Assembly (NCBI GenBank): GCA_021791445.1
Contig: JAJYWO010000010.1
Span: forward strand, 1,304 to 65,303
Reading direction: 5' to 3'
Origin: a bacterium
GTDB taxonomy: Bacteria > Patescibacteriota > Minisyncoccia > UBA6257 > UBA9933
Length of the DNA: 64,000 nucleotides
In this document: positions 6,179-55,607 of the stretch, one piece after another
How the letters are laid out: the number at the start of each line of letters is the position of its first letter
Position numbering within the stretch: the first letter of the stretch is position 1
Made by a program: the position numbers and the translations under genes
The notes under the pieces: generated by a model
Databases searched by the model: none
The model's input: only the letters and a program-made list of their open reading frames with translations
What the model was told of the DNA's origin: nothing

Positions 6179-6211
6179 ATTTATTAATATTAATCTTTTT
6201 TTGCGATTTTC

Positions 6212-6259
6212 AAAAGTATAACATTTTATCGCCGATCGGCAACGATTTGTTATACTTTT
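6212..6259. repeat. 48-bp imperfect palindromic intergenic repeat, copy 1: AAAAGTATAACA...GCCGATCGGC...TGTTATACTTTT
   Basis: Sequence read directly. Related copies at 7633-7680 (exact reverse complement), 9359-9406 and 46169-46216. Confidence 0.8.
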
Positions 6260-6322
6260 ATCGATACGGCATATTATAATCAATGCTAAACAATTTTCAA
6301 GTTTTATGCTTAAATCTCTATT

Positions 6323-7642: not shown

Positions 7643-7680
7643 CAAATCGTTGCCGATCGGCGATAAAATGTTATACTTTT
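7633..7680. repeat. 48-bp palindromic intergenic repeat, copy 2. It is the reverse complement of copy 1, so iscS is flanked by inverted copies
   Basis: Direct sequence comparison. Confidence 0.8.
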
Positions 7681-7686
7681 AAAATA

Positions 7687-10328: not shown

Positions 10329-10646
10329 CTACTTGGGAATAAATTTTTCTACCCCCACAATCTCAATGTCAAATCCAAGCCGCAAATCGTGAAGCATTTG
10401 CGCTATCTTATCTGCTTCTTGAATATTTGTGTCGTAGATACGTAGAAATGGCTGAGATGTATGTTCTACATCAATACAAAAGGAATCAAACGCTGTTATA
10501 ACTACTTTGTCCTTAAATTCTGATGCAAAAATAACGTCTTTTATTTTTTTTACTGTATTTAACAGCGCTTGATGTTGCAATCGAAATAATAGTGTATCCT
10601 CAACCTCAAAAATACTTCCCATTCCGTGAATCTCGATATTCGGCAT
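10329..10646 (-). CDS. Hypothetical 105-aa protein
   Basis: ORF only. No motif recognised. Confidence 0.4.
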   Translation of the reverse strand: MPNIEIHGMGSIFEVEDTLLFRLQHQALLNTVKKIKDVIFASEFKDKVVITAFDSFCIDVEHTSQPFLRIYDTNIQEADKIAQMLHDLRLGFDIEIVGVEKFIPK

Positions 10647-12781: not shown

Positions 12782-13770
12782 TTATTTACTCTGCAGCGAT
12801 TTTTTGATTTTATTCAAAAGCTGTTTGTCTTCTTTGAGTTTTTCCCGCGCCGCTTCCACGCCCACGCCAAGTTTTTCGCCCTCAAAAGAATATGTGTTTC
12901 CTGATTTGGAAACAACGCCCGCTTTAATTCCGGCGTTCAAAATATCGCCGGCGTATGATATGCCCTCGCCGTACATAATGTCAAATTCCGCGATTTTAAA
13001 CGGCGCTGCCACTTTGTTTTTCACCACTTTCGCCTTAACGCGGTTGCCGACAACGTCTTCGCCTTTTTAATCTGGGCGATGCGGCGAATATCAATACGCA
13101 CCGAAGCGTAAAATTTCAAAGCCCGACCGCCCGGGGTGGTAGTCGGTTCGCCGTAACCCATCATCCCGATTTTTTCGCGGAGCTGATTGATAAAAATAAT
13201 CAAAGTGTTTGATTTGGCGGAAATCGCCGTCAATTTGCGAAGCGCCTGGGACATCATTCTCGCCTGAAGCCCGATGTATTGCGCGCCCATTTCGCCCTCA
13301 ATTTCCGTTTTTGGAGTCAAAGCGGCAACCGAATCAACCACAATCACGTCAATGATTCCCGAACGCACCAGGCTTTCCAGAATATTCAGCGCTTCCTCGC
13401 CGCTGTCCGGCTGAGAGATAATCAGGTCGTTAATTTTTACCCCTAATTTTTTGGCGTATTCCGGGTCCATAGCGTGTTCCGCGTCAATAAAAGCCGCCTT
13501 GCCCCCGCCTTTTTGGGCTTCGGCAATGGCGTGAAGCGCCAAAGTGGTCTTGCCGGAACTTTCCGGCCCGAAAATTTCAATAATTCTTCCCTTGGGGAAT
13601 CCGCCGACTCCCAAAGCGATGTCCAGCGAAAAAGAACCGGTCGGTATCGCCGCCACATCGACTTTTTTAATATCGCCCAATTTCATTATCGCGCCCTCGC
13701 CGAATTTTTCTTGAAGAGATTCTAAAAGACTATCCAGTTCGTTGGTTTTTTTATTTTTGTCGTCCTTCAT
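12782..13770 (-). pseudogene. recA: RecA recombinase interrupted by a -1 frameshift in an A5 run (plus-strand T-run 13063-13067). The two ORFs 13021..13770 and 12782..13027 together give a full RecA
   Basis: Walker [11 protein letters not shown]2 loop, and [12 protein letters not shown] then, in the other frame, [27 protein letters not shown]...GEGIS. Adding one A restores the canonical sequence. May be an assembly error. Confidence 0.85.
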
Positions 13771-40663: not shown

Positions 40664-41584
40664 ATGGCCGATATTAAAAATTTATTAAAGAACTATCTTG
40701 ATTATTTGGAGATTGAGAAAAATCGGTCGCCGAAAACGCGGGAAAATTACGAGCGTTATCTTAAAGCGTTTTTTGAATTCAGCGGAATAAAAAGCGAAAA
40801 AGAAATTAACGTTGATAAAGTGAAAGAATTCCGTTTGCGTCTGGCGCGGATGAAAAACGAGAAAGGCGAGTATCTGAAAAAATCAACACAGGCATATTAC
40901 GTTATCGCTTTGCGGAATTTTTTAAAATATTTGATTAAAAACGATTATGAAGTTTTGTCTCCGGATAAAATCGAACTGCCAAAAATTCCGGCGCGCCAGA
41001 TTAAAACCATTGAATACAAAGATATGGAGCGGCTGTTGGACGCGCCGCATCCGCCGGCTGGCGGAAATGATTTAAGAGTGTTGCGCGACAAGGCGATTTT
41101 GGAAACATTGTTTTCAACCGGGCTCCGCATTTCCGAACTTTGTTCGCTTAATCGCTACATTGACATCAATCGCGGCGAAATAACCGTGCGCGGCAAAGGT
41201 GGAAAATTGCGCGTGGTTTTTCTTTCCGACCGCGCTAAAAAAGCGCTGAAAAATTATTTGGACAAGCGCGAAGACGCGGAAGAAACGCTGTTTGTGAGTT
41301 TAACTAAATCAAAAAAACCTAAAGTTATCGGCCGAATTTTGCCGCGCACAGCCCAGAGATTAGTTGATTTCTACAGCCGCAAAGCCGGAATTTTTGAGAA
41401 AATTTCTCCGCACCAATTCCGTCACCAATTCGCCACCGACCTTTTAATCGGCGGAGCGGATTTGCGTTCGGTTCAAGAGCTTTTGGGGCATTCCAATATT
41501 TCCACCACCCAAATTTATACTCATCTAACCAATAAAGAACTTCGCGAAGTTCATAAAACATTTCACGCCCGAAGGAGAAAATAA
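40664..41584 (+). CDS. xerC: Tyrosine site-specific recombinase XerC/XerD family
   Basis: R..H..R..Y catalytic pattern: RHQFATDLL, HSNISTTQIYTHL. Confidence 0.88.
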   Translation: MADIKNLLKNYLDYLEIEKNRSPKTRENYERYLKAFFEFSGIKSEKEINVDKVKEFRLRLARMKNEKGEYLKKSTQAYYVIALRNFLKYLIKNDYEVLSPDKIELPKIPARQIKTIEYKDMERLLDAPHPPAGGNDLRVLRDKAILETLFSTGLRISELCSLNRYIDINRGEITVRGKGGKLRVVFLSDRAKKALKNYLDKREDAEETLFVSLTKSKKPKVIGRILPRTAQRLVDFYSRKAGIFEKISPHQFRHQFATDLLIGGADLRSVQELLGHSNISTTQIYTHLTNKELREVHKTFHARRRK

Positions 41585-41587
41585 TAA

Positions 41588-41612
41588 ATGAAGGCCTCCG
41601 CAAGGCCTTCAT
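41588..41612. terminator. Bidirectional terminator hairpin GAAGGCCTCCGCAAGGCCTTC between the convergent xerC and copA genes. Identical to 11688-11710
   Basis: Perfect hairpin flanked by A/T runs. Confidence 0.7.
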
Positions 41613-43789
41613 TTGTAATATTTCATTGTTAGCGCGCTTAAGACCACACTCACCGAGGAAAACGCCATTGCCGCGGCGGCGATAGCCGGATTAAGCAGCC
41701 AGCCGAAAAACGGGTAAAGGATGCCGGCGGCAATCGGGATGCCGGCGATGTTGTAAAAGAAAGCCCAGAAAAGATTTTGTTTGATTTTTCGCAATGTGTA
41801 AGCGCTTAAATTAATGGCGGAGATGGCGTCGCGTAAATCGTTTTTAACCAGAATAATCTGGCCGCTTTCAATGGCGATGTCCGAACCCGAACCGACTGCA
41901 ATTCCCAAATTGGCTTGCGTTAAGGCCGGCGCGTCGTTGATGCCGTCGCCGACAAAAGCCACGATTTCTCCCTGCGCTTGCAGGTTTTTTATTTCCTGCG
42001 ATTTTTCCTGAGGCAGGACTTCAGCCAATATTTTTTCTATGCCAAGCTGTTTGGCAATGGCTTCAGCGGTTCTTTTATTGTCGCCGGTAATCATCGCCGT
42101 TTTTTTGCCGGCCTCGCGCAGTTTTTTAACGGCTTCAATGGAAGTTTCTTTAAGCGTGTCCGCCGCGGCGATTAAGCCGATTATTTCTTTGTCTGCGGCG
42201 AGAATCATCACGGTTTTCCCTTGTTGTTCCAAATTTGAGATATTTTTTTCAATTTCATCGCTTATATTTATATTGAAACCGGCCATTAAATTTTTATTGC
42301 CGATTAAAATTTTTTGATTTTTAATTTCCCCTTTTGCTCCTTTTCCCGGAATCGCCTCAAAATTTTCAACTTCAAACAATCCCAGATTGTTTTTTTTCGC
42401 CTCGTCAACAATCGCTTGCGCCAAGGGATGTTCGGATTTTTTCTCCAAACTCGCCGCCAGTTTTAAAACATCGTTTTTTGCAATTTCCATAATATCCGTT
42501 ACTGTCGGTTCGCCGCGGGTCAAAGTTCCGGTTTTGTCAAAAACAACCATAGTGATTTTTTTGGCGATTTCCAAAGCGTCGGCGCTTTTGATTAAAATTC
42601 CTTTTTGCGCCGCTAAGCCCGTTCCCATCATTATCGCCGTGGGAGTCGCCAAGCCCAAGGCGCAGGGGCAGGCGATAATCAAAACCGTGACAAAAATCAC
42701 TAAGCTGAATGTGGCGCTTTGTCCAGTTAAAAACCAGATAATGGCGGCCAACACAGCGATAGCAATAACACTGGGCGTGAAATACAGCGAGATTTTATCA
42801 ACCAAAAGCTGAATCGGCGCTTTTGATTCCATAGCTTCCTGAACCACTTTGATGATTTGCGCCAAAATCGTATCTTTGCCAATTCTTTTCGCTTCAATTT
42901 TCAGAAAGCCGGTTTTATTGATGGTCGCGCCGATAACATCGTCTCCAACTTTTTTTTCAACCGGAATGCTTTCGCCGGTAATCATTTTTTCGTCAACTCC
43001 CGAATATCCTTCAATGACTTTGCCGTCAACCGGAATTTTTTCTCCGGGCTTTACCAAAACAATATCGCCGATTTTTATTTCCGCGATGTTGATTTTTATT
43101 TCTTTGCCGTCTCTTATGATAACCGCTTCCTTCGGTTGGAGGCCGATGAGTTTTTTAATCGCCTCGTTAGTTTTGCCTTTGGTTTTGGCTTCAAGATATT
43201 TGCCGAGGGCGATGAAAATCAGAATCAAAGCCGCGCTTTCAAAATACAAATCTCCGGAAACCGATAATACTAAAATAATCAGGCTGTAAAAATAAGCCAC
43301 GGCAGTGCCGATGAAAATCAAAGAATCCATATTGGGCATAAACCGGAGCAAGCTTTTAAATCCCGATTTCCAAATGTCAAAACAAGCGGCGATAATCGCG
43401 GTTGCCAAAACAAGCTGAATAATATCACTTGCTTGTTTTGCCAAGGGCAATTTTGGCAATCCGACAAGCGACGCCATTACAGCGTAAATAATCGGCAAGC
43501 CGAAAATAAGCGAAAAAACAAAGCGGTTTCTCAATTTTTTCGCCGGTTCTTCGGGATGATGGTGCTCGTGGTCTATTTCGTTTTCTTCCATCGCTCCGTA
43601 GCCGAGTTCGCCGATGATTTTTTTAATCGTGTCTTTGCCGATTTTTTTCTCGTCAAATTCAATACTGGCTTTTTCCGAAGCAAAATTCACGCCGGCATTT
43701 TTTATACCCTCGGTTTTTTTCAAAACGTGTTCAATGTTGGCGGCGCACGACGCGCAATCCATATCGGTAATTTTGAGAATTGTTTTCAT
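41609..43789 (-). CDS. copA: Copper-translocating P1B-type ATPase
   Basis: N-terminal HMA motif [14 protein letters not shown] in TM6 ([12 protein letters not shown]), [15 protein letters not shown]. Confidence 0.93.
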
Positions 43790-43795
43790 ATTATT

Positions 43796-44827
43796 TTATA
43801 TTCCGCAGCCGCTTTGTTGCTGAGGAGCCGGAGCGCTGTCAATGCCGCAGCCGCTTCCGCCGGAAGATTTTTGGGTTTTCGCGGTTTGCGAAGAGATTTT
43901 TCTGTATCCGGACGCGCTGGAATAATCAGCTCCGAGAATTTCAATTGGATCAACATTTTCCCATTCAATTCCTTTATTTTTCATATAAGTCGCGATGGTG
44001 AGATAAGTGTCCGGAAACCAGTAGGAATTTACGGCCAAAGCCGCATTCCACATTTCTTGTTCGCTCGCGTTTTGCGAAGCCATCAGCTCCAGAAGTCCAA
44101 GCATCGCCATCCCGTGGTTGCAATCCGGAAAATGCGTTGAATTGCCGCAGCACGGCCGGTAAACGCCTTTGGAAACTTTTTCCACCAGTGCCTGTTGTTC
44201 GTCGGTCAATTCAAGAAGCCGGTGCTTGCTGTAATGTTCCATTGCGTTTCCCTTGGCGATTGTCCATCCAGCGGTTGAGGCGAAATTTTCGGCTCCGCCG
44301 TAGCGCGGGTCCGCCATTTCTCCGTTTTCCAGAATCGGATTTTTGTTTGCCAAGCCGAGCGCCCACAGCAGATTCAGCAGATATCCGGAATTTTCATTTG
44401 TTATTCTGAGTTTGCCGTTGTTTTTCCCGAGGAGCAGATTCTCGTATTCTTTGGCGAACGCGTCGCGCTGTTCGTATATTGATTTGAATTTGTCGGCGTC
44501 AATGGCGCCTGAATTCACGAGTTGAAGTCCGAGATCGCCCCAGACAGCGGGCAAAACAACGCCTTCGGACGGCAGAACTTTTTCTTCAAGTTCGGAAATT
44601 GTTGTTTCGGAGACGGAGGCATTTTGCGTTTTCGGCAGGGTGCCGGATTTCAGTCCTACGGAATACACCCATGTTCCGGAAATCAATATCGCTGAAATAA
44701 GAATGCTTGTGCCGATGCCGATATTGAAGCCCGAGGATTTTTCCGCGCCGGCGTTTTGAATTGTTTCTTCCGCGTTTTGCGCTTGCACATCTTCAATTAT
44801 TTGATTTTGATTTTTTTGTTCTTCCAT
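43796..44827 (-). CDS. Membrane-anchored Cys-containing protein (CCGNSTHFPDCNHG, C-terminal SGCGIDSAPAPQQQSGCGI). Possibly a metal/thiol-redox partner in the copA operon
   Basis: ORF, single N-terminal TM. Position in the operon 46124->41609. Confidence 0.45.
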   Translation of the reverse strand: MEEQKNQNQIIEDVQAQNAEETIQNAGAEKSSGFNIGIGTSILISAILISGTWVYSVGLKSGTLPKTQNASVSETTISELEEKVLPSEGVVLPAVWGDLGLQLVNSGAIDADKFKSIYEQRDAFAKEYENLLLGKNNGKLRITNENSGYLLNLLWALGLANKNPILENGEMADPRYGGAENFASTAGWTIAKGNAMEHYSKHRLLELTDEQQALVEKVSKGVYRPCCGNSTHFPDCNHGMAMLGLLELMASQNASEQEMWNAALAVNSYWFPDTYLTIATYMKNKGIEWENVDPIEILGADYSSASGYRKISSQTAKTQKSSGGSGCGIDSAPAPQQQSGCGI

Positions 44828-44835
44828 AAGTTTAT

Positions 44836-45618
44836 TTAGAAAGCGAAAATGGCGATGCCGAGAATAATCATGGCAATGCCACTGATCGTTTTCATTTGTT
44901 TATTATTGACTCTTTTCCATTCCATCACTTTTTCCGTAAGAGATTTATCGCTGGTTATCAGCAGAATCGCGACAAGCGGAAGAATGAAAATCAGATTGTA
45001 CAGCAGAAGATAGCCGATTCCGGAATAATAAGTGTTCTGGTCATGAAGCAGTCCTAGCACCATCAGATACGGGCCGCCGGTGCAGGGAAATTCGCAGAGC
45101 CCGACAAGGACGCCCAGAAAAAACGCGGCCAATAAGGACGTTTTATCCATAAGTTCCGCCATTTTATTGTGCGCGATTTTCGGAATTTTTATTCTTATCG
45201 GAAACGATGGAAACAGCGCGCTTATGGCGCTTATCGCTCCGACGGCGATTAGAAGGACTGCTCCGACTTTTGCCATAAAATGCGGTGTGTTGAAAAGATG
45301 GAGAACCTGCAGAATTCCGAGCCCAATAAGGACATAAACGGCGAGAATTCCCAAAATGTAAAACCCTCCGATTTTCAAAATATCCGAACGCGTTTTTTCG
45401 ATGGTGAAAAGAAAAGCGATTGTCAGGAGCAGGATTGAAAACGCGCAGGGATTGACGCTGTCAATTATCGCCGCAACGCTTACGAGCGGCAGAAGCCATT
45501 TGCCGTGATCGCTTATATTCCACAAGGCGGCTGTTCCAATATTGCTTTCTTTCAGAAATATTGCCGCGCCGAAAACTAACAATGCGATTGCGGAAATAAA
45601 TATCAGTTTTTTGCTCAT
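44836..45618 (-). CDS. ccdA: Cytochrome c biogenesis / thiol-disulfide transporter CcdA (DsbD transmembrane domain family)
   Basis: Paired Cys in TM segments (SVNPCAFS and CEFPCTGGPY), 6-8 TM topology. Confidence 0.8.
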   Translation of the reverse strand: MSKKLIFISAIALLVFGAAIFLKESNIGTAALWNISDHGKWLLPLVSVAAIIDSVNPCAFSILLLTIAFLFTIEKTRSDILKIGGFYILGILAVYVLIGLGILQVLHLFNTPHFMAKVGAVLLIAVGAISAISALFPSFPIRIKIPKIAHNKMAELMDKTSLLAAFFLGVLVGLCEFPCTGGPYLMVLGLLHDQNTYYSGIGYLLLYNLIFILPLVAILLITSDKSLTEKVMEWKRVNNKQMKTISGIAMIILGIAIFAF

Positions 45619-46124
45619 TATGGAGTTACAACGGCGGTTAATTGAAGTTCAATCGGGTCGCCCGCGTTGTTTTCAATTATTACCGCCCTTTGGATTTTGC
45701 CAACGCCGGCCGGACCATGCGCCGCCGGGTCAAAAACGGCTTCTATTGTCGCTTCTTCGTTGGAATCGATTATCTGATTTATCACCGGAATAACGCCATG
45801 GCCGGGCATTCCGTAAGGCCCCATTTTTTTGCCCTTAATCATAAGTTCGGCGGTTGTGCACATGCACGAAGTGTATATCTTGCTTATAGTCGTTGCTTCA
45901 TTTCCGTTATTTTTAATTTTAAAATCGTATTTTACTTTTCCGGCGGTCATTGAAATTTCGCCGAAATCATAATTATTAACTCCTTCAACAACCAATGTTC
46001 CGTTATTTTGCGCCGGAATCGCGGATTTGTTTTTTCCGCTGCTCTGCTGTTTTGGTTCCGCGAACCAGATGATTCCGCCGAGCAGCGCGGCCGCGACAAC
46101 GGCGCTGATGACAATTTTGTTCAT
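45618..46124 (-). CDS. Secreted DUF1573-family protein
   Basis: YDFGEI...G......F.IKNNGN..L.I..V..SCMCT pattern. Confidence 0.6.
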   Translation of the reverse strand: MNKIVISAVVAAALLGGIIWFAEPKQQSSGKNKSAIPAQNNGTLVVEGVNNYDFGEISMTAGKVKYDFKIKNNGNEATTISKIYTSCMCTTAELMIKGKKMGPYGMPGHGVIPVINQIIDSNEEATIEAVFDPAAHGPAGVGKIQRAVIIENNAGDPIELQLTAVVTP

Positions 46125-47280: not shown

Positions 47281-47469
47281 AAGAATTAAGAAAAATATGG
47301 AACCTAAAATAAATTTTTGGGAATTTTGCGCGCGTGTATACGAAATTTACAAGTATATAATAATTACCGGGTTTAGTTAGTTTAGTTATGGACTTATTCC
47401 CGCCAGAGGCGGACAGGCGCGCGAATAGTGGAATAATAAGAAATAAAATAAAAAATTTGTAAAATGAAT

Positions 47470-47600
47470 CGCGGGCTTGACTTTTGGGGTGAGATATGCT
47501 TATATAAATATAGTTTAAACACGGGATTGAACTTTGAAAAACATTCGTCATAGACGGATAAAATGATAGATAGAAAATTTTAGATAAGGAGGATAAGGAG
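47470..47600 (+). promoter_or_regulatory. Conserved promoter + 5' leader element, copy 1 of 3: cgcgggcTTGACTtttggggtgagatatgcTTATATAaat, a leader hairpin (cgtc-ata-gacg), ggataaaatgatagatagaaaa, then the SD ggaggataaggag
   Basis: Near-identical ~45-nt promoter core in all three copies. The leader hairpin shows compensatory changes between copies (cgtc/gacg vs ccgcc/ggcgg vs cagcgg/ccgctg). Confidence 0.75.
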
Positions 47601-48641
47601 ATGAATGAAATTTCCACGATAAAATTAATGTGGTTAACTGTTAATCGCGAATGTAATTTCCGTTGTAATTGGTGTTATGCGGCAGGAAGCGAATATCAGG
47701 CAAAAGATGAAATGTCTTTGCCGTTCGCTCTTGATCTTCTTGAAATTGCAAAACAACTTGGGATTGGCAAGTTATTTCTAATCGGGGGAGAGCCAACCCT
47801 TTGGCCTTATTTGTTTGATTTTAATGACGCGATGATATCCGCTAAAATAAAATCTACGCTTGTAACTAATGCGTATAGATTTTCTAGCGATAGGTTTTGG
47901 AGGAAATACATTGAGCATCCAAATACCCATATAGGCGCTTCATTTAAAGCTTTTAATCCGAAAAGTTTGATTGAGAATACAAAGGCCACTGCATTCGCCG
48001 ATGTTACAAAAGGTCTTCAAAGAGTTTTTGAATATCAACCAAATAGTATAGCCAGTTTTGTGTATTCACGGCCATATGTGTCTCATTTCCTGGATATGAT
48101 GAAATATGCCGTTGACTGCGGAGCATTTGGTGTGTCTGTGAATTTTTGTTCTCCGGCTATACACAAAGACCGCATAGATGATAAATTCTTAATTGATATT
48201 GACGTATTAGTTAAGGAAATAATATCTACTTATGAAGAAGCGCATGCGATTACGGGCGGTCGTCTTGTGTTTGTTATGAAACACCCTCTTTGTATTTGGC
48301 CTAAAGATTTTATTCAAATTTTGAAAGACAGGGGGCAGATTTCAACCACATGTCACCTCCAACATCAATCAGGGGGCATTATTGATACAGACGGTTCATT
48401 GTTAATTTGCAACAGCATGTTTGGCTTCCCCGTTGGCAGATACGGACAGGATTTTAAATCTGCCGAGTCGCTGGCAACTTTTTTTGGATCAAAGCAAATG
48501 AGAAATTACTTTGCTCAAGTAAGGGCGTATCCTTCCAAGAAGTGCATTGATTGTGAAGTCTTTGAAGACTGTTCAGGGGGTTGTCCATTGTTGTGGACAG
48601 TGTATTCGCCTGACAGCGTAATTACAGGGTGGTCAAAGTAG
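47601..48641 (+). CDS. Radical SAM enzyme with a C-terminal SPASM domain (peptide-modifying maturase type)
   Basis: CNFRCNWC (Cx3Cx2C) near the N-terminus and C-terminal CIDCEVFEDCSGGC (Cx2Cx5Cx3C), plus upstream CHLQH...ICNS auxiliary Cys. Confidence 0.85.
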   Translation: MNEISTIKLMWLTVNRECNFRCNWCYAAGSEYQAKDEMSLPFALDLLEIAKQLGIGKLFLIGGEPTLWPYLFDFNDAMISAKIKSTLVTNAYRFSSDRFWRKYIEHPNTHIGASFKAFNPKSLIENTKATAFADVTKGLQRVFEYQPNSIASFVYSRPYVSHFLDMMKYAVDCGAFGVSVNFCSPAIHKDRIDDKFLIDIDVLVKEIISTYEEAHAITGGRLVFVMKHPLCIWPKDFIQILKDRGQISTTCHLQHQSGGIIDTDGSLLICNSMFGFPVGRYGQDFKSAESLATFFGSKQMRNYFAQVRAYPSKKCIDCEVFEDCSGGCPLLWTVYSPDSVITGWSK

Positions 48642-48642
48642 A

Positions 48643-49365
48643 TTGACCATAACGAATCCTCTGGCGCATCGTAACGCGTCAGAGGATTTTTTTGCTAAAT
48701 CGAAAATTATAAGTTATATTAATAAAATCATGCTTGTTATACCCATAAAATTTCAATTTAATATTGAATCCGAGGTGCGCAGAGTAAGGGAGACTCTTGA
48801 TAATTTTAAATGGCTTACCAAAAATAATTACAGGTTTCTTTTGCCGAACGGCATAAAGGATTCTAAAGACATAAAAATAGAAATGATTAGAAAGTTAGTG
48901 GAAGATGAGTATGACTTGAATATTTATCAGATTGCCGAGAGCGCCATTTTAAAATCATGGGAAGGGAACAGTGGTTTAATGAGAAAAATTAACCAAAAGA
49001 TGAATGGTTCGTATATGTTGGATGAGGTCACTGTAATTTTAACCAGATATGGCACTCAGGGAAGCTATATGACACCTAATTCAGCGATTATAAATATTTC
49101 TAATATTCCTTCCGAGTTTCTAATTAAAACTGTTATACACGAGTCCTTGCATTTAATGATTGAACATTTAATCAAAAAATATTCAGTTGAGCATTGGGTT
49201 AAGGAACGTATAGTAGATTTAATAATGGATTTTGAATATAAATCTCGTTTTAAAATGCAGTCTGCGCCTAATTGGGTTTTTATTACAGATGAGATATTTA
49301 AAGGGTATTATCCGGATATGAATTTAATAATAGAAGGGGCAGCTAAAATTTTTCCTGATAAGTAA
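48643..49365 (+). CDS. HExxH-motif protein (putative zinc metallopeptidase), paralog 1 of 3
   Basis: TVIHESLHLMIEH. Translationally coupled to the rSAM gene, with a 1-nt gap. Confidence 0.6.
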   Translation: MTITNPLAHRNASEDFFAKSKIISYINKIMLVIPIKFQFNIESEVRRVRETLDNFKWLTKNNYRFLLPNGIKDSKDIKIEMIRKLVEDEYDLNIYQIAESAILKSWEGNSGLMRKINQKMNGSYMLDEVTVILTRYGTQGSYMTPNSAIINISNIPSEFLIKTVIHESLHLMIEHLIKKYSVEHWVKERIVDLIMDFEYKSRFKMQSAPNWVFITDEIFKGYYPDMNLIIEGAAKIFPDK

Positions 49366-49383
49366 TTTGCTGTGTATAAAAAA

Positions 49384-49420
49384 AGCCCTCAGCACATTTA
49401 ATTAAAAAATGTGCCGAGGG
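49384..49420. terminator. Bidirectional terminator gccctcagcacattt-aattaaa-aaatgtgccgaggg
   Basis: 14-15-bp stem with a T-run on the minus strand and A/T on the plus strand. Sits between convergent genes. Confidence 0.75.
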
Positions 49421-49445
49421 TTGTCGTTTCGGATGGAGATATTCT

Positions 49446-49607
49446 CTCACTCGTCTGCACAGTCGCAATTGCATTCGCATGCTCCCCAGCCGCCATCACA
49501 ATTACTGGTTATACAGTCACAATCACCGCGGATTTGAGGGGAAAAGCCTTTGACGCTTCTCGTGCATGGTATTTCCGTTGTCTTAAGGAATCTAACGAAT
49601 TTATCCA
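49446..49607 (-). CDS. Unannotated 53-aa Cys/Asp-rich precursor-like peptide (SCIFF/ranthipeptide-like): VDKFVRFLKTTEIPCTRSVKGFSPQIRGDCDCITSNCDGGWGACECNCDCADE
   Basis: Minus strand: SD AAAGGAGGTGA, 7 nt, GTG start, 8 Cys concentrated in the C-terminal 24 residues, stop followed by a strong terminator. A TTGTAT-17-TAATAT promoter lies upstream. The plus-strand ORF 49411..49692 on the opposite strand is judged spurious. Confidence 0.7.
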
Positions 49608-49681
49608 CTATTTCTCACCTCCTTTCTATTTGAATTTTCTAATAAAAATATTAACATTATTTTTTGATTTATACAATAACC

Positions 49682-49906
49682 CTATTTTTTAAGATCTTCA
49701 AATAATTTAGTATTTTTTGGATTATTCAGATAATGTTTAAAATGTTTTATTTCGTCGACTAAAATCTTTTCAAATTTACTTATCCAGATTTTATTAAAAC
49801 GCGGTTGAAATATTTCAAAAATTTTTTTAAATTCGTCTTTTTTGACAAGTCCTTCCAATTCGTTCCAAGCTTCTTTTTCCGGATATGTAAAAAATATCTG
49901 TCCCAA
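49682..49906 (-). CDS. Small hypothetical Lys/Glu-rich protein (74 aa), upstream of the precursor peptide. It overlaps the 5' end of 49842..50618 on the other strand, so one of the two starts is wrong
   Basis: ORF with plausible composition. No motif recognised. Confidence 0.35.
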   Translation of the reverse strand: MGQIFFTYPEKEAWNELEGLVKKDEFKKIFEIFQPRFNKIWISKFEKILVDEIKHFKHYLNNPKNTKLFEDLKK

Positions 49907-50618
49907 ATATTTTGACTATTGTGATGATGGCAGGAATTTGGAATGGGCGATTTTGAGAAAATATCCGGAATTTAAAAAATATAAAAGAAATAAATTAGAT
50001 GTCAATGAAAAGCAAATTTCAATATTTGTAAATTCTATTTATCAAAAGAACAATAAAATAATCAGAAAAAATCTTGATTTATATAAAAAAAGTTGGGCGA
50101 AACTGGGGAAAGACTATTTTGTTTTAGTTAGCCAGATTTTCGGCGATTATAAATGGCCATTAGGAAAATATATTGTTTATCTGACAATTTGGGGGATGCA
50201 CCCGCGTTTTTTAGAAGATAAAACTTTTCAAATCCCTTTTCGCCATAAGAATGAAAAATATATAAATGTGATTATTGCCCACGAAATGCTTCATTTTATA
50301 TTTTATGATTATTTTTATAATAAATTTCCCCAATATAAATCAAACAAATACAATTTTTTCGTATGGAACATATCGGAAATTTTTAACAATATAGCGCAGG
50401 ATTCTCCGCAATGGATTAAAATTTTTAAAGCTAAATCTATGCCTTATCCGGAACATAAAAAAATAGTGAATAAATTAAAGAAAAAATTTTATAAAAAAAG
50501 CGTTATTATAGCTAAAGATTTAATAAAAGAAATTATAAAAAATAAAGATTTTTTACCAATTTTCGCGGGCTTGACTTTTGGGGTGAGATATGCTTATATA
50601 AATATAATTAAGGGATAG
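49842..50618 (+). CDS. HExxH-motif protein, paralog 2 of 3. The TTG start from the track is uncertain. Its C-terminus is translated through the conserved promoter element of the next operon
   Basis: NVIIAHEMLHFIFYDY. The C-terminus FAGLTFGVRYAYINI is encoded by the cgcgggcttgacttttgggg... promoter repeat. Confidence 0.55.
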   Translation: MTSPSNSFQASFSGYVKNICPKYFDYCDDGRNLEWAILRKYPEFKKYKRNKLDVNEKQISIFVNSIYQKNNKIIRKNLDLYKKSWAKLGKDYFVLVSQIFGDYKWPLGKYIVYLTIWGMHPRFLEDKTFQIPFRHKNEKYINVIIAHEMLHFIFYDYFYNKFPQYKSNKYNFFVWNISEIFNNIAQDSPQWIKIFKAKSMPYPEHKKIVNKLKKKFYKKSVIIAKDLIKEIIKNKDFLPIFAGLTFGVRYAYINIIKG

Positions 50619-50691
50619 TTCTTAAAAACAAACAGCGGTTTTCAGCCGCTGAAAAATAAGATAGAAAAATTTAGAAATGAGGAGGTAAATC
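50561..50691 (+). promoter_or_regulatory. Conserved promoter + leader element, copy 2 (TTGACT at 50571-50576). Leader hairpin cagcgg-ttttcag-ccgctg, then aaaataagatagaaaa, then SD gaggaggtaa
   Basis: See copy 1. Confidence 0.75.
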
Positions 50692-51999
50692 ATGTTATAT
50701 CAGACACTTTCGGCACCAATAAATTGCCAGATAGAGCTTACGACTTCTTGTAGTCATAATTGTTCTCATTGCTATAATTTCTGGCGGAAGGATATTGAAA
50801 GAGTCAATAATTTTCTTAAAGAAACAGATGTTAGTAAAATTATACGGAAAATAGCGGACGCAAAAGTATTTGATATCATAATTACCGGCGGTGAGCCGTT
50901 AATAAAATATGATATTCTCATACATTGTATTAAGGAGGCGCGAAGCGCAGGATTGGGCATTTCTTTGAATTCAAATTTAGTTTCGTTAACCAGGGCTCGC
51001 GCGCGCGAATTGCGTTCTTTGGGTATAAAACAAATACTCACGTCTTTAATGGGTCCATCAGCGGAAATACATGATAAAATTGCCCAATCAAAAGGGTCAT
51101 TTGAAAGAGTTGTGAGAAATATACAATTAGCCAATGAAGAAAAGATTAATATTGTCGCCAATATGGTAGTTTCAAAAATTAATCTTTCTTTTGTTAGGGA
51201 CACGGCAAAGTTTGTTTCTTCTATTGGAATTAAGAAGTTTGCGGCTACCAAAGCGGGATGTCCGGGAAATTGTTTCGATTTCTCGCAATTCTCATTATCA
51301 AAAGAAGAATTTAAGAAATATTTACAAGATTTACAAGAAGTTGGCGAAGAGCTCGGTATTGCAATTGATGCGCTTGAGGGATATCCATTGTGTGGAATCG
51401 GCGACCTTAATCGTTATTATTCATTTATTGGAAGGAAATGTTATGCTGGCGTAACTACGATAACTATTGCCAGCGATGGCGAAGTTAGACCATGTTCCCA
51501 TCTTGATGTTTCGTATGGAAATTTACTTACAAAAGATTTGGCGGAGATTTGGACACGCATGGCTCCATGGAGAAATGGCGCATACTTACCAAATACTTGT
51601 AAAAGTTGTAAAATTTTACATGTGTGCGGTGGCGGTTGTCGTATGGAGGCGAAGATGCGCAGCGGGAATATTTCAGGAATGGATCCGTACAGTATGCCCA
51701 ACGATATTGAAAAGAGTTTATATTCACTTCAAGAACATCAGAAAAATATGTTTTATAAGGCGCCATTGAAAAATTTTGAAATAAGGCCTTATCGCTATCG
51801 ACATGAATCTTTTGGAGCCGTTGTTCTTGTGGGGAAATCTCGAGCATTTCTAAGTGCAACCGGTCTTAAACTCTTTAAGCAGTTTGAAATATCGTCTACG
51901 TATTCATTACAAGACGAAAGAATTCAGTGGGGCGCTTTGAATCCGGTCGATTTTATTCGCGGCCTTATTCAAAGAGGAATCGCTGTTGGAAAACAGTGA
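50692..51999 (+). CDS. Radical SAM enzyme with a SPASM domain, second maturase
   Basis: CSHNCSHC (Cx3Cx2C) and C-terminal CKSCKILHVCGGGC (Cx2Cx5Cx3C), plus CGIGD...C auxiliary cluster residues. Confidence 0.85.
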   Translation: MLYQTLSAPINCQIELTTSCSHNCSHCYNFWRKDIERVNNFLKETDVSKIIRKIADAKVFDIIITGGEPLIKYDILIHCIKEARSAGLGISLNSNLVSLTRARARELRSLGIKQILTSLMGPSAEIHDKIAQSKGSFERVVRNIQLANEEKINIVANMVVSKINLSFVRDTAKFVSSIGIKKFAATKAGCPGNCFDFSQFSLSKEEFKKYLQDLQEVGEELGIAIDALEGYPLCGIGDLNRYYSFIGRKCYAGVTTITIASDGEVRPCSHLDVSYGNLLTKDLAEIWTRMAPWRNGAYLPNTCKSCKILHVCGGGCRMEAKMRSGNISGMDPYSMPNDIEKSLYSLQEHQKNMFYKAPLKNFEIRPYRYRHESFGAVVLVGKSRAFLSATGLKLFKQFEISSTYSLQDERIQWGALNPVDFIRGLIQRGIAVGKQ

Positions 52000-52033
52000 T
52001 TATGTAAAAATATCTCAAAAGGAGGTAATCGCT

Positions 52034-52162
52034 ATGCCAAAAGATGACGGTTTTGTTTCATTCGTTCAAATAGAAAAAAACCAAACAGAAAATCTTACGG
52101 CTGTTCAAAACTGCGACTGTTATGATTGCGACTACAACTGCGAAGAGTGCGATAGCAAATGA
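52034..52162 (+). CDS. Unannotated 42-aa Cys/Asp-rich precursor-like peptide: MPKDDGFVSFVQIEKNQTENLTAVQNCDCYDCDYNCEECDSK
   Basis: SD AAAGGAGGTAA 7 nt before the ATG, directly downstream of the rSAM stop. Five Cys in the last 16 residues, with a CDC motif shared with peptide A. A terminator follows. Confidence 0.75.
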   Translation: MPKDDGFVSFVQIEKNQTENLTAVQNCDCYDCDYNCEECDSK

Positions 52163-52184
52163 TCATAGATCATTTGTTGATCTC

Positions 52185-52214
52185 AAAGAGATAAAGGATT
52201 TCCTTTATCTCTTT
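52185..52214. terminator. Bidirectional terminator aaagagataaagga-ttt-cctttatctcttt plus a T run
   Basis: 13-14-bp stem. Sits between precursor B (+) and the HExxH paralog 3 (-). Confidence 0.75.
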
Positions 52215-53080
52215 TTTATTTGGATCGGTTTTTGATATTTAAGTAGAATATGCGGTTTTTTATATAATTGATTTCCATAGCGGTTCCAAACGGCGCGTTT
52301 TTTTGAAAAATCTTTATTAATTGGCAAAAGAATATTTAATATTTCTTGCAGGAAAGTTTTAAAAGTTTTTTTATTTTTTATTTTTATAATTTGATAATAT
52401 TCATTAATAAATTCAGTAAAAGAAATAATTACGCCATCGGACTTTTTAATTTGCAGGTCGCGAATTTCCGGATTGCCTTGATAATTTTTTAATTTAAGAA
52501 TTTTATTAAGAGGTTTTTGGTTAAGCAATACGGCGGTCAAAGTTTCTTTAAAATAGTTTTTAAAATCTTCTGGGACTTTTTTTCGTTTCAATTTTTTAAG
52601 AAAATTAAAAAGAATGAAATGCGATATTTCATGGATAGCAATAAAAAGAATATCTCTGCCACCTTTTCTTTTTATCTGTTCAAGAATTGAAAAATAAAAA
52701 ACATTGTTGCCAAAAGGAGAAAATGGAAGAATTGTCGGCATGGCTGTGTAGTCGGGGTGATTTTTTGGCCATTGATAATCCATTAATTTCGCCAATTTGA
52801 TGAGCGCTTTTTTTTCTTTTTCTTTTAATATTTTTTTCGATTGAACAATAATTTTTTTGATTTTTTTATCGTTTTTTTTATAAAAATCTTTAATGAATTC
52901 TTTTATAATAGTTTTTTCTTTATTTTTATTTTTCTCTGTTTTTAACAAAATTTCCAATTCGGGAAAGGATTTAAAAATAATAAATTTATGTTGAGGATAA
53001 TAATGATGGTGTAAAAATTTTAAAAATAGATCAACTTCTTTATTTAAGTCATATGTAATTTTAATAGAAGGAATTTTCAT
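52205..53080 (-). CDS. HExxH-motif protein, paralog 3 of 3
   Basis: LFIAIHEISHFILFNF, Lys-rich, 291 aa. SD aaaggaaa lies upstream of the ATG at 53080. Confidence 0.55.
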   Translation of the reverse strand: MKIPSIKITYDLNKEVDLFLKFLHHHYYPQHKFIIFKSFPELEILLKTEKNKNKEKTIIKEFIKDFYKKNDKKIKKIIVQSKKILKEKEKKALIKLAKLMDYQWPKNHPDYTAMPTILPFSPFGNNVFYFSILEQIKRKGGRDILFIAIHEISHFILFNFLKKLKRKKVPEDFKNYFKETLTAVLLNQKPLNKILKLKNYQGNPEIRDLQIKKSDGVIISFTEFINEYYQIIKIKNKKTFKTFLQEILNILLPINKDFSKKRAVWNRYGNQLYKKPHILLKYQKPIQIKKR

Positions 53081-53120
53081 GTTAAAATTTTATCAAATTT
53101 CCTTTATTTTATCCAATTTT

Positions 53121-53255
53121 CGCGGACTTGACTTTTGGGGCGAGATATGCTTATATAAATACAATTTAAGCAAGGGGTTGGACTTTGAAAAACATCCGCC
53201 ATGGGCGGATAAAATGATAGATAGAAAAAATTCAGAAAAATAGGAGGATAAGGAG
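53121..53255 (+). promoter_or_regulatory. Conserved promoter + leader element, copy 3 (TTGACT at 53128-53133). Leader hairpin ccgcc-atg-ggcgg, ggataaaatgatagatagaaaa, SD ggaggataaggag
   Basis: See copy 1. Confidence 0.75.
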
Positions 53256-53747
53256 ATGACGAAGAATATTATAGGATTTCTGTTAGTTTTCTGCATTTTC
53301 GCCATTGGCGCAAATTTAATGGCGGAAGAGGATTATGGTAATGTTGGCCCGACGTTAAAGGATTTCATTATTGCTAAAGAAGGAGATAATTTGAGGCTCA
53401 GCTTCTCTTTCTTTAACGTCAAAGGCGGGTTGGCTGCAGCCACTTTCACAGTTGGTTATGTTATTGAAAGGGGTGAGTCGACCATAGAGTCAAATGTGAT
53501 GACCAATCTCGGAATTGCTCCGGATTTGGCGAAGGTGTCTAAATTAAAGTCAAAAATAGACATTTTCCAAATTGAAACCGGTGAATTTCAAGTTGTCATT
53601 CCGTGGCTCCGGGCCCAGAGTATCAAAGATTTGGAGTTAAAATCAGGCGATAAGATTAAATATCTTATCTACTTGACGGATAAGAACGGCAGAAAATCAA
53701 ACACCGTCTTCTGTGAATATTTATTCATAGAAGAATGGAACATTTAA
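53256..53747 (+). CDS. Secreted hypothetical protein (signal peptide)
   Basis: MTKNIIGFLLVFCIFAIGANLMA signal. Confidence 0.5.
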   Translation: MTKNIIGFLLVFCIFAIGANLMAEEDYGNVGPTLKDFIIAKEGDNLRLSFSFFNVKGGLAAATFTVGYVIERGESTIESNVMTNLGIAPDLAKVSKLKSKIDIFQIETGEFQVVIPWLRAQSIKDLELKSGDKIKYLIYLTDKNGRKSNTVFCEYLFIEEWNI

Positions 53748-53769
53748 CCAAAAAAACAGGAGAATTGAA

Positions 53770-54297
53770 ATGAGAAAGATAATGATGGTAGGAATGCTGC
53801 TGGTATTTGCAATGCTGGCAGTGGGATGCGCGGGGATGATGGGGGAAAGCGGCATAAGGAATAAAATGATAAATATCACTAACGTTGATAGTGCCAATAA
53901 TAATGTGATATACTACTCACCAATTCTCTATGATAATGGTTTTACTCGTTGGAACGTTGTTACCAATGAACGCCTTAAAAACCCGGGTAAATATCATTTA
54001 GAGTTTAAAAAAATTCTTGTAAAAGAGATAGAAAGGGTTTTTAAAGAAAGGGGGTATGCTCTGGTTGAAAAAAATCCTCCCTCAAATTCTAATTCAATCT
54101 ATATTGAATTAAGAATCTCTTTATGGGGGAAAGAATCTCATCCCAGAGGAGTTAGTGGCACAAGATGGTTAGTCTATCAAGGAGACAAGCTCGCTTTTGA
54201 AATTTATTACTGGACATTCGGCACCTACGATGAAATGGCAAAAATTCTTGCAAATAAAGCGACGGACAGTCTTCTCGATGAAATAAAGAGAAAATAA
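53770..54297 (+). CDS. Hypothetical lipoprotein (lipobox LAVGC)
   Basis: MRKIMMVGMLLVFAMLAVGCAG. Confidence 0.55.
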   Translation: MRKIMMVGMLLVFAMLAVGCAGMMGESGIRNKMINITNVDSANNNVIYYSPILYDNGFTRWNVVTNERLKNPGKYHLEFKKILVKEIERVFKERGYALVEKNPPSNSNSIYIELRISLWGKESHPRGVSGTRWLVYQGDKLAFEIYYWTFGTYDEMAKILANKATDSLLDEIKRK

Positions 54298-54407
54298 TTA
54301 TCTTGTTCAGGCCCCATTAAATATCAAAGATTGGGGCCTGTTTTATTATTTTAGTTATCCACAGGCATTGTCTTGTAATAAATTTTTAATTTGTTAAAAT
54401 TATAATA

Positions 54408-55607
54408 ATGAAATTTTTTAATAATAAATTCTTTATTTCTTTTTTGATTTTAATGGTCTTGTTTTATAGTTTTTCAGTTAAAACTGCCGAGGCAAAAGGT
54501 GTAGCTACGTTTGTTGGTATTATTTTAATAGTTGTTGCTATTGTGGTATTCCCAGTTATAGCGGTTGGACTTTCACAGGGATTAGCTTTATCAACTGCTG
54601 GTATAATAACCGCAAGTGTTATTGGGGGTGGACTTATACTTGGTCAAATTGCTTGTCTTGCGGGCACAGACAATCCTGCATTTACTGGTTGTAGTGGCGA
54701 TAATTCCAACTGGCAAGGCGCCGCCGGCTCCCCAACTCTTCAAAACCAATCAGCAACTCCAATAATGAGTTCGGACGGAAACTGCATAACGGGATATACT
54801 CTTTCATATAGCGTCACAGACGCCTATCAATACGGAATATATAGAGACGGCAATCTGATAAAACAAGGAACATTGAATACCATTGTCCAACCATCTCCGT
54901 ATAACACCAGTTTTTCATACACGGATAATAATCTTACTCCAAATAAGGATATAAAATATAAACTCATCTTAATCGACAAAAACGGTAAACAATATCAGTA
55001 TCCGGAAATGAGTGTGTATACCGAATGCATCAAGCTGGATTTGAAAATGGATAACAAAGACGGAGCAAGAAATTATTTTTATCCTAACAATAATGCCGCT
55101 CTCCAATGGGAAACAATCGCCGCCACATCCTGTACGGCTTCCGGAGATTGGAGCGGAAGCAGGGGTCCGGCTTCGGGTTCGGAAGATTTGGGCTATCTTC
55201 CCAGAGGAACATCTAATCCCGGCCAAGGAAAAACATACAATTATTCCCTCACTTGCCAATACCCAAAGGATAAAACCCTTTCTGACAGCGTTTCCGTAAC
55301 CATATTCAAATATCCTGATTGTACTTTTACGGCCAACCCGGATGTCATAGAAATCTTGCCCGCCACATCCACTTTATCCTGGAATTGCCGGTATTTGGGC
55401 GCTCCCACTCAATCTTCGGTTAATTCTTGTTCCATAGACCAAGGCATAGGTAATCTGACTCAGCTTCCCGATGGCTCAATGGATGTCCGTCCCTCCCAGG
55501 AAACCACTTACACCATGACTTGCGATTCCATTGATAAAATCACAGATTATCAGGCTTCCGTAAAAGTGGGTTTCAGGCCCAGAGTGAGGGAGATTATTCC
55601 GAGATAA
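54408..55607 (+). CDS. Hypothetical protein with N-terminal TM helices and a Cys-containing extracytoplasmic beta-rich domain
   Basis: ORF plus hydrophobic N-terminus. Confidence 0.45.
   Translation: MKFFNNKFFISFLILMVLFYSFSVKTAEAKGVATFVGIILIVVAIVVFPVIAVGLSQGLALSTAGIITASVIGGGLILGQIACLAGTDNPAFTGCSGDNSNWQGAAGSPTLQNQSATPIMSSDGNCITGYTLSYSVTDAYQYGIYRDGNLIKQGTLNTIVQPSPYNTSFSYTDNNLTPNKDIKYKLILIDKNGKQYQYPEMSVYTECIKLDLKMDNKDGARNYFYPNNNAALQWETIAATSCTASGDWSGSRGPASGSEDLGYLPRGTSNPGQGKTYNYSLTCQYPKDKTLSDSVSVTIFKYPDCTFTANPDVIEILPATSTLSWNCRYLGAPTQSSVNSCSIDQGIGNLTQLPDGSMDVRPSQETTYTMTCDSIDKITDYQASVKVGFRPRVREIIPR

Follow-up and report, generated by a model that had tools for sequence, protein, structure and literature searches.

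Two Putative RiPP-Type Module Types Combining Radical-SAM/SPASM Enzymes, Cys-Rich Peptides and HExxH Proteins in Patescibacteria

Gene Content of the Locus

We analyzed a 64,000-nucleotide stretch of DNA (hereafter the window; positions 1,304 to 65,303 of contig JAJYWO010000010.1, GenBank assembly GCA_021791445.1) from a bacterium of the Patescibacteriota, focusing on the segment between positions 47,470 and 53,255, for which a first-pass annotation had proposed a system that makes a peptide that is ribosomally synthesized and then post-translationally modified (RiPP). A listing of open reading frames (ORFs) recovered the genes that had been placed there, namely two radical S-adenosylmethionine (radical-SAM) enzymes with SPASM domains (rSAM1 and rSAM2), two small Cys/Asp-rich ORFs (pepA and pepB) and three proteins carrying an HExxH motif (HEx1, HEx2 and HEx3; Table 1). 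They form two modules of three genes, each shorter than 2.5 kb and each consisting of a radical-SAM/SPASM enzyme, a short Cys-rich peptide and an HExxH protein: module 1 comprises rSAM1, HEx1 and a convergent pepA, and module 2 comprises rSAM2, pepB and a convergent HEx3. All of the proteins involved are named in their source records only as “hypothetical” or as a generic “radical SAM protein.” On balance, we favor the view that these are two independent, self-contained RiPP-type module types that are widespread across the Parcubacteria/Paceibacteria of the Candidate Phyla Radiation (CPR), in which the SPASM enzyme would introduce thioethers and the HExxH protein would serve as a leader peptidase.

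Table 1. Genes and regulatory elements of the locus, in window coordinates.
Feature	Position	Strand	Description
Promoter/5′UTR cassette, copy 1	47469..47577	+	Core 47477-47510, TTGACT-17-TTATAT; small hairpin in the 5′ untranslated region (5′UTR); upstream of rSAM1
rSAM1	47601..48641	+	346 aa; Pfam Radical_SAM and TIGR04085 SPASM above cut-off; without N-terminal RiPP recognition element (RRE) domain
Terminator/attenuator hairpin, rSAM1-HEx1	48654..48689	+	14-bp stem and T-run
HEx1	48730..49365	+	211 aa, zincin-like; HESLH, invariant Glu of WVKER 17 residues past the second His
Bidirectional terminator, HEx1/pepA	49386..49420		14-bp stem with T-runs; common to both genes
pepA	49447..49608	-	53 aa; GTG start 7 nt after Shine-Dalgarno AAGGAGGTG; ends at a strong hairpin terminator
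HEx2	49842..50618	+	HEMLH; diverged paralog of the HEx3 family; start uncertain (TTG 49842 or 49953); 3′ end enters promoter copy 2
Promoter/5′UTR cassette, copy 2	50563..50671	+	Core 50571-50604; upstream of rSAM2
rSAM2	50692..51999	+	435 aa; Pfam Radical_SAM, Fer4_12 and SPASM; C-terminal extension of 80-100 aa, possibly RRE-like
pepB	52034..52162	+	42 aa; ATG 7 nt after Shine-Dalgarno AAGGAGGT; ends at a strong hairpin terminator
Bidirectional terminator, pepB/HEx3	52185..52214		13-bp stem and T-run; common to both genes
HEx3	52205..53080	-	291 aa, zincin-like; HEISH and invariant E179; convergent to rSAM2-pepB
Promoter/5′UTR cassette, copy 3	53120..53228	+	Core 53128-53161; 89% identical to copy 1; upstream of the 163-aa ORF at 53256
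Unit behind copy 3	53256..55607	+	163-aa secreted protein with signal peptide, 175-aa lipoprotein (LAVGC lipobox), 399-aa protein

Conservation and Synteny of the Modules

A metagenome scan with the HEx1 family yielded 32 loci, which were compared by tblastn. The order rSAM1, HEx1, convergent pepA was found in every contig able to hold all three genes (10 distinct loci including the window, whose sequence is the same as that of L001 and L002), and seven shorter contigs are consistent with it. Relative to the window, sequence identity is 69-93% for rSAM1, 56-86% for HEx1 and 57-80% for pepA, and pepA is convergent to HEx1 in more than 20 loci. For module 2, a genome scan with rSAM2 identified a Candidatus Kaiserbacteria contig (L005) encoding an enzyme 69% identical to rSAM2, with a 45-aa ORF (MQKSNDGFVSFVQ…CDNSCHDCNVNCEECDNN) directly 3′ of it, followed by a convergent HEx3 homolog. 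The same arrangement of rSAM2-type, pepB-type and HEx3 genes surrounds six further HEx3 homologs (L010, L011, L019, L044, L045, and L047), bringing module 2 to seven loci other than the window. Homologs of pepB lie directly 3′ of the rSAM2-type gene in L005, L010, L011, L044, L045, and L047, and in L019 a pepB-like ORF adjoins HEx3. Overall, across many CPR contigs both small genes are retained as ORFs and keep a fixed synteny with their radical-SAM/SPASM and HExxH partners.

Modules 1 and 2 are neighbors in one other genome (L019). The locus had initially been described as a duplication; however, rSAM1 and rSAM2 are only 23% identical and, thus, the modules are not recent duplicates and instead represent two distinct, separately conserved types. 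All-against-all clustering of the ORFs across loci revealed no further conserved neighbor, be it a transporter, an immunity gene or a regulator.

The CPR-like nature of the host was confirmed. The alanyl-tRNA synthetase encoded in the window is 84% identical to a protein assigned to the “Patescibacteria group” and 78% identical to one from Ca. Wolfebacteria, and the named HExxH homologs come solely from Parcubacteria-type taxa (Niyogibacteria, Colwellbacteria, Paceibacterota, and Minisyncoccia), with a link to Kaiserbacteria provided by L005. The locus is also present on a 4-kb contig (L002; GCA_023475715.1, JAMCVO010000664.1) of a metagenome-assembled genome (MAG) labeled Actinobacteria/Actinomycetota at NCBI; since the housekeeping genes of the window are Wolfebacteria/Patescibacteria-like, this label is probably a binning error. 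No relatives of HEx1 or HEx3 were detected in viral contigs, which indicates that the modules are not phage-borne.

Some loci depart from these arrangements. HEx1 lacks its N-terminal part in L037-L041. A ninth context of the HEx3 family (L046) has a different, shorter SPASM enzyme (357 aa) and no detectable pepB; at positions 4001-7800 of this locus the HEx3-family protein is accompanied by a Peptidase_S66 protein, the radical-SAM/SPASM enzyme and a stand-alone C39 peptidase domain, and it may represent a variant module with export-coupled processing. L005 carries two rSAM2-type modules, with IS30- and IS3-type transposases between them, whose non-coding flanks (7706-7882 vs. 12846-13021, and 10454-10496 vs. 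15384-15426) are 84-94% identical whereas their enzymes are 45% identical. That the regulatory DNA has been conserved better than the adjoining genes suggests concerted evolution or a swapped cassette.

Predicted Precursor Peptides

The leader of pepA has conserved positions at F4, L8, K9, T11, and G21-x-S23-P24, and its core contains six invariant Cys residues (DC…NC.GG.GACECNCDC). Among 15 distinct nucleotide variants, pS is 0.78 and pN is 0.22 (pN/pS 0.28), with F4, T11, G21, S23-P24, and the core residues D-C…N-C-x-G-G-x-G-A-C-E-C-N-C-D-C unchanged in all of them. This ratio, together with the conservation, indicates that pepA is a translated gene under purifying selection. The family comprises 22 unnamed clusters in a database of 5.8 billion proteins. 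In pepB, a leader with the motif DGF(V/E)(S/T) precedes the core …DCYDCDYNCEECD, and comparison across the pepB loci gives the leader motif GFE(T/S)(I/L)L and a core, DCYDCD(Y/F)NCEECD, that recurs in six loci. A different Cys-rich small ORF (…NCSACQAACQSDPCQADPTCDFD) occurs at positions 835-1035 of L015, some 2 kb upstream of a HEx1 homolog that stands alone.

Radical-SAM/SPASM Enzymes

The identification of both enzymes as SPASM-type radical-SAM proteins was borne out by domain models scoring above cut-off and by invariant cluster cysteines. The Radical_SAM domain (PF04055, cut-off 29.5 bits) scores 57.9 bits in rSAM1 and 79.4 bits in rSAM2. The SPASM domain is recognized in rSAM1 by TIGR04085 (29.8 bits, cut-off 27), with no match to PF13186, and in rSAM2 by PF13186 (34.1 bits, cut-off 21.5). 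The cluster motif of rSAM1 is CNFRCNWC (Cx3Cx2C), and its SPASM signature reads C251-x13-G-x4-C270 ... C315-x2-C-x5-C-x3-C328. In an alignment of 12 homologs, Cys 18, 22, and 25 of rSAM1 are invariant, as are Cys 183, 231, 251, 270, 315, 318, 324, and 328; in rSAM2 the Cx3Cx2C triad and nine further Cys are invariant (alignment, 6 homologs). The extra invariant cysteines, eight in rSAM1 and nine in rSAM2, would suffice for two auxiliary clusters in each enzyme.

Among proteins of known structure, CteB is the closest sequence match of rSAM1, and the best matches of rSAM2 are SkfB, PqqE (second) and SuiB; thus, the nearest solved relatives are all RiPP maturases. Matches to curated NCBIfam families are weak. 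For rSAM1 the top match is PapB (NF047865; 52 bits, cut-off 340), which aligns nearly end to end (residues 9-329 with model positions 4-317 of 330). For rSAM2 the best matches are AhbD (121 bits, cut-off 500) and NirJ2 (115 bits), and it scores 64.1 bits with PapB and 84.7 bits with StsB (NF045574, cut-off 625). The first-pass annotation had compared the locus with SCIFF (six Cys in forty-five) maturation, but rSAM1 reaches only 32 bits against the 425 demanded by TIGR03974, and neither peptide matches any NCBIfam model at E ≤ 0.1. The alternative of an anaerobic sulfatase-maturating enzyme (anSME) fails likewise: rSAM1 scores 35.2 bits with TIGR03942 (cut-off 349.45), this model is absent from the 25 NCBIfam matches listed for rSAM2, and no sulfatase domain was found in the flanking ORFs scanned across the window. 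Given that all scores fall far below the family cut-offs, we rejected membership in the SCIFF, PapB, StsB, PqqE, MftC, and anSME families. A role in defense was also rejected, as PADLOC returned only generic similarity of the radical-SAM core to viperins.

HExxH Proteins

The three HExxH proteins had been described as paralogs forming a private family. For HEx2 and HEx3 the relationship holds: HEx2 matches a hidden Markov model (HMM) of the HEx3 family (30.4 bits, E 5e-11, residues 36-160) and shares 25-27% identity with HEx3 homologs (tblastn). In contrast, HEx1 has no significant sequence similarity to either, and its inclusion in one paralogous family with HEx3 was rejected because neither BLAST nor hhalign (probability 5%) nor HMM searches gave a significant result; the two share only their fold class and architecture. 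Nor is the family private. A profile search of 5.8 billion proteins retrieved 134 relatives without a Pfam domain, of which the named ones are all “hypothetical protein,” and these split into a HEx3 family of ~290 aa and a HEx1 family of ~211 aa. The former comprises 408 clusters at 50% identity (exhaustive profile search, 1.84 billion representatives) and the latter 47 clusters among the top 120 matches. We therefore recognize two CPR-wide families and a species-specific HEx3 paralog, HEx2, for which no orthologs were found outside the same species (profile search, and tblastn over the loci). The 47 homologs also support an ATG start of HEx1 at 48730, giving the 211 aa that they share, instead of the TTG at 48643 assumed originally.

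None of the three proteins has a Pfam or NCBIfam match above cut-off, and HEx1 and HEx3 profiles retrieved only noise from PDB sequences. A bridging domain for the HEx3 family was sought with Pfam in ten selected relatives (six longer ones and four remote ones of ~255-265 aa), and none was found. Sigma-70-region-4 repeats in protein P0404 were judged to be compositional, as they match only its Lys/Glu-rich helical part, with ~12 bits per repeat.

The AlphaFold models are of high confidence (HEx1, pLDDT 92.2 and pTM 0.89; HEx3, pLDDT 95.4 and pTM 0.92) and share one layout: a strand and helices at the N-terminus lead into a long helix and a small β-sheet, after which come the HExxH helix and then a helix with an invariant Glu. 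The invariant residues are H137, E138, H141, and E159 in HEx1 and H150, E151, H154, and E179 in HEx3, with the HExxH and putative third-ligand Glu residues on consecutive helices. Foldseek gave no significant match; the weak ones are M1/M61 enzymes, including the lanthipeptide peptidase EryP (7v9p). M1 catalytic domains are the top structural neighbors of both models, and hydrolytic gluzincins (M1, M4, M30, and M36) rank above the hydroxylase ChlH. As modeled, HEx1 and HEx3 thus have a zincin catalytic fold that looks more like that of gluzincin peptidases than like that of α-ketoglutarate-dependent HExxH (αKG-HExxH) enzymes.

A sister module in the Kaiserbacteria locus L005 bears on their function. 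Here, a second paralog of rSAM2 (45% identical) is present along with a Cys-rich peptide of its own (…DQCDCESCQNCDGTSCNCHCHST), and next comes a 222-aa protein that matches Pfam Peptidase_MA_2 (37.3 bits, cut-off 32.4) and has an M1-type motif, HELCH…WLNEG. Judged by these features, this protein is a true gluzincin, a non-orthologous zincin in the equivalent module position, and its presence there is the strongest reason to regard HEx1 and HEx3 as peptidases. HExxH and a downstream (W/Y)xxE are invariant in both the HEx1 and HEx3 families, and (W/Y)xxE is kept in all four proteins when the Kaiserbacteria one is included.

Proposed Pathway and Alternative Explanations

We propose that rSAM1 would be transcribed from a locus-specific promoter, that HEx1, preceded by a conserved terminator and then a further promoter-like site, would be expressed with pepA converging on it, and that rSAM2 and pepB would be co-transcribed from the second promoter copy, with HEx3 convergent and HEx2 as an additional, diverged paralog of HEx3. 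Equipped with its radical-SAM cluster and two putative auxiliary Fe-S clusters, each SPASM enzyme would bind the conserved N-terminal leader of its own peptide and then make intramolecular cross-links in the core. To judge from the richness of the cores in Cys, Asp, Asn, Glu, and Gly, these would most likely be Cys-derived thioethers, of the sactipeptide (Cα) or the ranthipeptide (Cβ/γ) type. The cytoplasmic HExxH protein, as a minimal gluzincin-like metallopeptidase, would next remove the leader. Both modules most likely make cross-linked ribosomal peptides. The RiPP-like reading in the first-pass annotation withstands the two tests set there for refuting it: the peptides are conserved as ORFs in related genomes, and the anSME score is far below its cut-off with no sulfatase nearby. 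The duplication and the single private HExxH family do not hold, and the SCIFF models are not matched.

Several observations weigh against the proposed pathway. Neither enzyme reaches any curated equivalog cut-off, and thus the chemistry cannot be read from homology. rSAM1 has no RRE, and although the C-terminal 80 aa of rSAM2 show an RRE-like hydrophobic pattern, the extension matches no PqqD/RRE sequence model in Pfam or in a PDB profile search. No transporter is linked to the modules. Finally, only the last ~30 codons of rSAM1 are left in L007/L008 and L020/L021 (L007 6814-6900; L020 662-751), where HEx1 and pepA are intact, and HEx1 stands alone in L015, L029, and L035; thus, rSAM1 is not always needed in cis.

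We considered whether the HExxH proteins could instead be Fe(II)/α-ketoglutarate-dependent oxygenases acting on Asp/Asn residues of the radical-SAM-modified core, either by hydroxylation or by oxidative cleavage at these residues, like ChlH, PflC, and PesO. The pairing of HExxH and radical-SAM proteins, which the first-pass annotation had left to database comparison, is indeed already described: in αKG-HExxH hydroxylases (ChlBH/FxsB-type; IPR026337) a zincin-like HExxH protein is genetically coupled to a SPASM enzyme in RiPP clusters, and these hydroxylases act on Asp, His, Gln, and Pro (PMC12636437, PMC13060819). The cores of pepA and pepB are, in addition, rich in Asp and Asn. However, the HEx proteins do not match the described enzymes. 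HEx1, HEx2, and HEx3 have no NCBIfam match at E ≤ 0.1, in a library that includes no αKG-HExxH model, and searches of PDB sequences with profiles of HEx1 and HEx3 did not recover ChlH (8s5f) even when matches up to E 10 were admitted. They are also structurally nearer to hydrolytic gluzincins, are not fused to the radical-SAM enzyme and are paired with Cys-rich peptides rather than with aromatic cyclophane motifs. The conserved (W/Y)xxE on the next helix mirrors the third zinc ligand in the M1 motif WLNEG, and the sister module has a true Peptidase_MA_2 protein in the equivalent position. Further, αKG-HExxH enzymes require O2, and CPR bacteria are mostly anaerobic fermenters. We consider the oxygenase explanation improbable. 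Still further from the data is the idea that the SPASM proteins are non-RiPP enzymes (sulfatase maturases, AhbD/NirJ-type heme enzymes, cofactor maturases or viperin-like defense proteins) beside incidental small ORFs. The top NCBIfam scores of rSAM2 are to AhbD and NirJ2 and both enzymes weakly match pVip models in their radical-SAM core, but these scores lie far under the cut-offs (500 for AhbD, 349.45 for anSME, 180 for viperin), viperins have no SPASM domain, and no sulfatase, heme or nucleotide-kinase genes occur within ±10 kb. With the peptides in fixed synteny and under purifying selection, this idea is effectively refuted and we give it very little credence.

A different question is what the product does. 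It might be an intracellular metal-binding or redox peptide (metallothionein- or Fe-S-like) or a peptide-derived cofactor of the PQQ (pyrroloquinoline quinone)/mycofactocin kind, and not a secreted antimicrobial; the cysteines would then be metal ligands, and the radical-SAM and zincin steps would still occur but in a housekeeping role. The pepA core is near-invariant over its 15 variants although synonymous sites are saturated, the pepB core recurs in six loci, and spacings such as CxC and CxxC typify metal sites. The modules have no exporter, immunity gene or C39 peptidase as a conserved companion, signal peptides are absent from the HEx proteins, L007 and L020 have kept pepA and HEx1 in the absence of rSAM1, and very small genomes retain the modules. 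On the other hand, thioether formation would use up the thiols, and a copper-ATPase/thiol-disulfide cluster next to the locus (41609-46124) does not accompany the modules in other genomes. The modules are moreover patchy in the CPR rather than universal (22 pepA clusters, 408 HEx3 clusters), and an accessory trait therefore fits better than an essential cofactor. A metal-binding or cofactor product is, in our view, unlikely, if less so than the oxygenase. Slightly more doubtful is its fullest version, in which pepA and pepB would be precursors of a lineage-wide intracellular metal-binding/redox factor, made by a minimal pathway of SPASM enzyme and private zincin and switched together with envelope proteins by a dedicated promoter cassette. 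If true, this would constitute a new class of physiological cofactor or metallopeptide in ultra-small symbionts, not an antibiotic. Returning to the cross-linked peptides that we favor, the near-invariant cores, the absence of a linked transporter or immunity gene and the loss of rSAM1 in some genomes argue against a typical, fast-evolving bacteriocin. With their predicted cytoplasmic peptidases, and with pepA and HEx1 outliving rSAM1, the modules resemble SCIFF or cofactor-type systems, and the product looks like a conserved physiological peptide.

Comparison With Known Systems

The closest parallel is with SCIFF/ranthipeptides (ScfA/CteA and ScfB/CteB), which also combine a 45-53-aa peptide bearing six conserved Cys in its C-terminal half with a SPASM partner, have a core that is conserved lineage-wide and no linked transporter, and still lack an explained function; as noted, CteB is the closest PDB match of rSAM1. 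The differences are that pepA and pepB do not match TIGR03973 and rSAM1 remains far from TIGR03974, that rSAM1 is without the N-terminal RRE of CteB, that the modules described here add a dedicated zincin, and that the host belongs to the CPR and not to the Clostridia. PapB, the maturase of freyrasin (PapA), is the top NCBIfam match of rSAM1 and modifies a repetitive core rich in Cys and Asp; freyrasin is the precedent for a Cys-to-Asp thioether named in the first-pass annotation. However, both enzymes score far below the PapB cut-off, and pepA and pepB have CxC and CxxC motifs in place of a regular Cys-x3-Asp repeat. Streptosactin-type sactipeptides have a CxCxCx4GxGxG core (PMC10288494), and their maturase StsB is among the better matches of rSAM2. 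In pepA, CxC runs similarly lie beside a Gly-rich stretch (…NCDGGWGACECNCDC), but the Gly and Cys stretches stand in the opposite order, and StsB-type enzymes carry an N-terminal RRE and a cut-off that rSAM2 falls far short of.

With respect to the HExxH proteins, the M1 leader peptidases of class III lanthipeptides (AplP/EryP) show that a gluzincin (HExxH…E) can be a RiPP leader peptidase. Those M1 enzymes have ~850 aa and four domains, whereas the HEx proteins have a single domain of 211-291 aa with a private N-terminal helical region. The PQQ and mycofactocin pathways (PqqA/D/E/F and MftA/B/C/E) likewise bring together a SPASM enzyme and a peptidase with a short conserved peptide, they have an invariant core and an intracellular product, and PqqE is the second-best PDB match of rSAM2. 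Here too the scores are low (105 bits for PqqE, cut-off 381; 82 for MftC, cut-off 265), no follow-up enzymes of the PqqB/C or MftD/F type are present, and the core is Cys-rich where theirs consists of Glu/Tyr or Val-Tyr.

The general logic of a SPASM enzyme with a Cys-rich precursor and a metalloprotease is well known, and the system is therefore not categorically new. We found no description of these modules, of the peptide families or of the HExxH families in the curated libraries (Pfam, NCBIfam) or in the literature searched. Descriptions of RiPP biosynthesis in CPR/Patescibacteria are scarce: one survey detected no biosynthetic clusters among the Patescibacteria MAGs it covered (PMC11613949), and a report of graspetides was presented as the first for this group (PMC8939145). 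Our analysis delineates two module types that are compact and recurrent, along with two new families each of precursors and of HExxH proteins (HEx1 and HEx3). The near-invariant cores and missing export genes suggest a physiological role in minimal-genome organisms, paralleling SCIFF, and the modules would supply new pairs of leader peptidase and maturase for peptide engineering.

Regulatory Elements and Flanking Genes

The hairpin between rSAM1 and HEx1 has its stem preserved through many compensatory changes in 15 loci, among them the window, L007, L009, L013, L017-L020, L022, L025-L027, L030, L031, and L036. A promoter-like site (TTGCTA-17-TATATT, 48692-48720) comes next and ends 9 nt before the HEx1 ATG, without a Shine-Dalgarno sequence between them; the HEx1 mRNA may be leaderless or nearly so. 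As the promoter of its own that was first suggested for pepA, the site at 49676-49648 is plausible but weak (8/12 matches). The true promoter of pepA could instead be a stronger site on the minus strand (50005-49978; near-consensus TTGACA-16-TATATT), which lies upstream of ORF74 and within the reading frame of HEx2. ORF74 itself (49682-49906, minus strand, 74 aa, between pepA and HEx2) is unsupported, having homologs only in L001/L002, no family match and no clear start or ribosome-binding site.

The region upstream of the locus (40664-46124) encodes a tyrosine integrase, a copper-type P-type ATPase with an HMA domain, a DUF1573 protein, a 343-aa protein with several Cys and no Pfam match, and a 260-aa membrane protein, possibly DsbD-like, with a weak, sub-threshold match to SfLAP. 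This region may be a metal/thiol-handling islet beside the Cys-rich peptide genes. A functional link of its copper-ATPase/thiol-disulfide cluster to the modules was dropped, as the cluster is not syntenic with them in other genomes.

The promoter cassettes share a 34-nt promoter-like core, TTGACTTTTGGGG(T/C)GAGATATGCTTATATAAATA, present in exactly three copies in the window with 0 expected by chance. Each cassette has a 5′UTR hairpin of 7-8 bp at the same position and of different sequence. A known riboswitch was rejected as the identity of this shared upstream repeat, since a scan of the whole window at Rfam gathering thresholds returned a single tRNA and nothing else. The unit behind copy 3 has no Pfam match and was not found beside the modules elsewhere; given its promoter it may be co-regulated with them, and its membership in the system is uncertain. 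Taken together, the three cassettes suggest a small regulon that includes envelope-type proteins.

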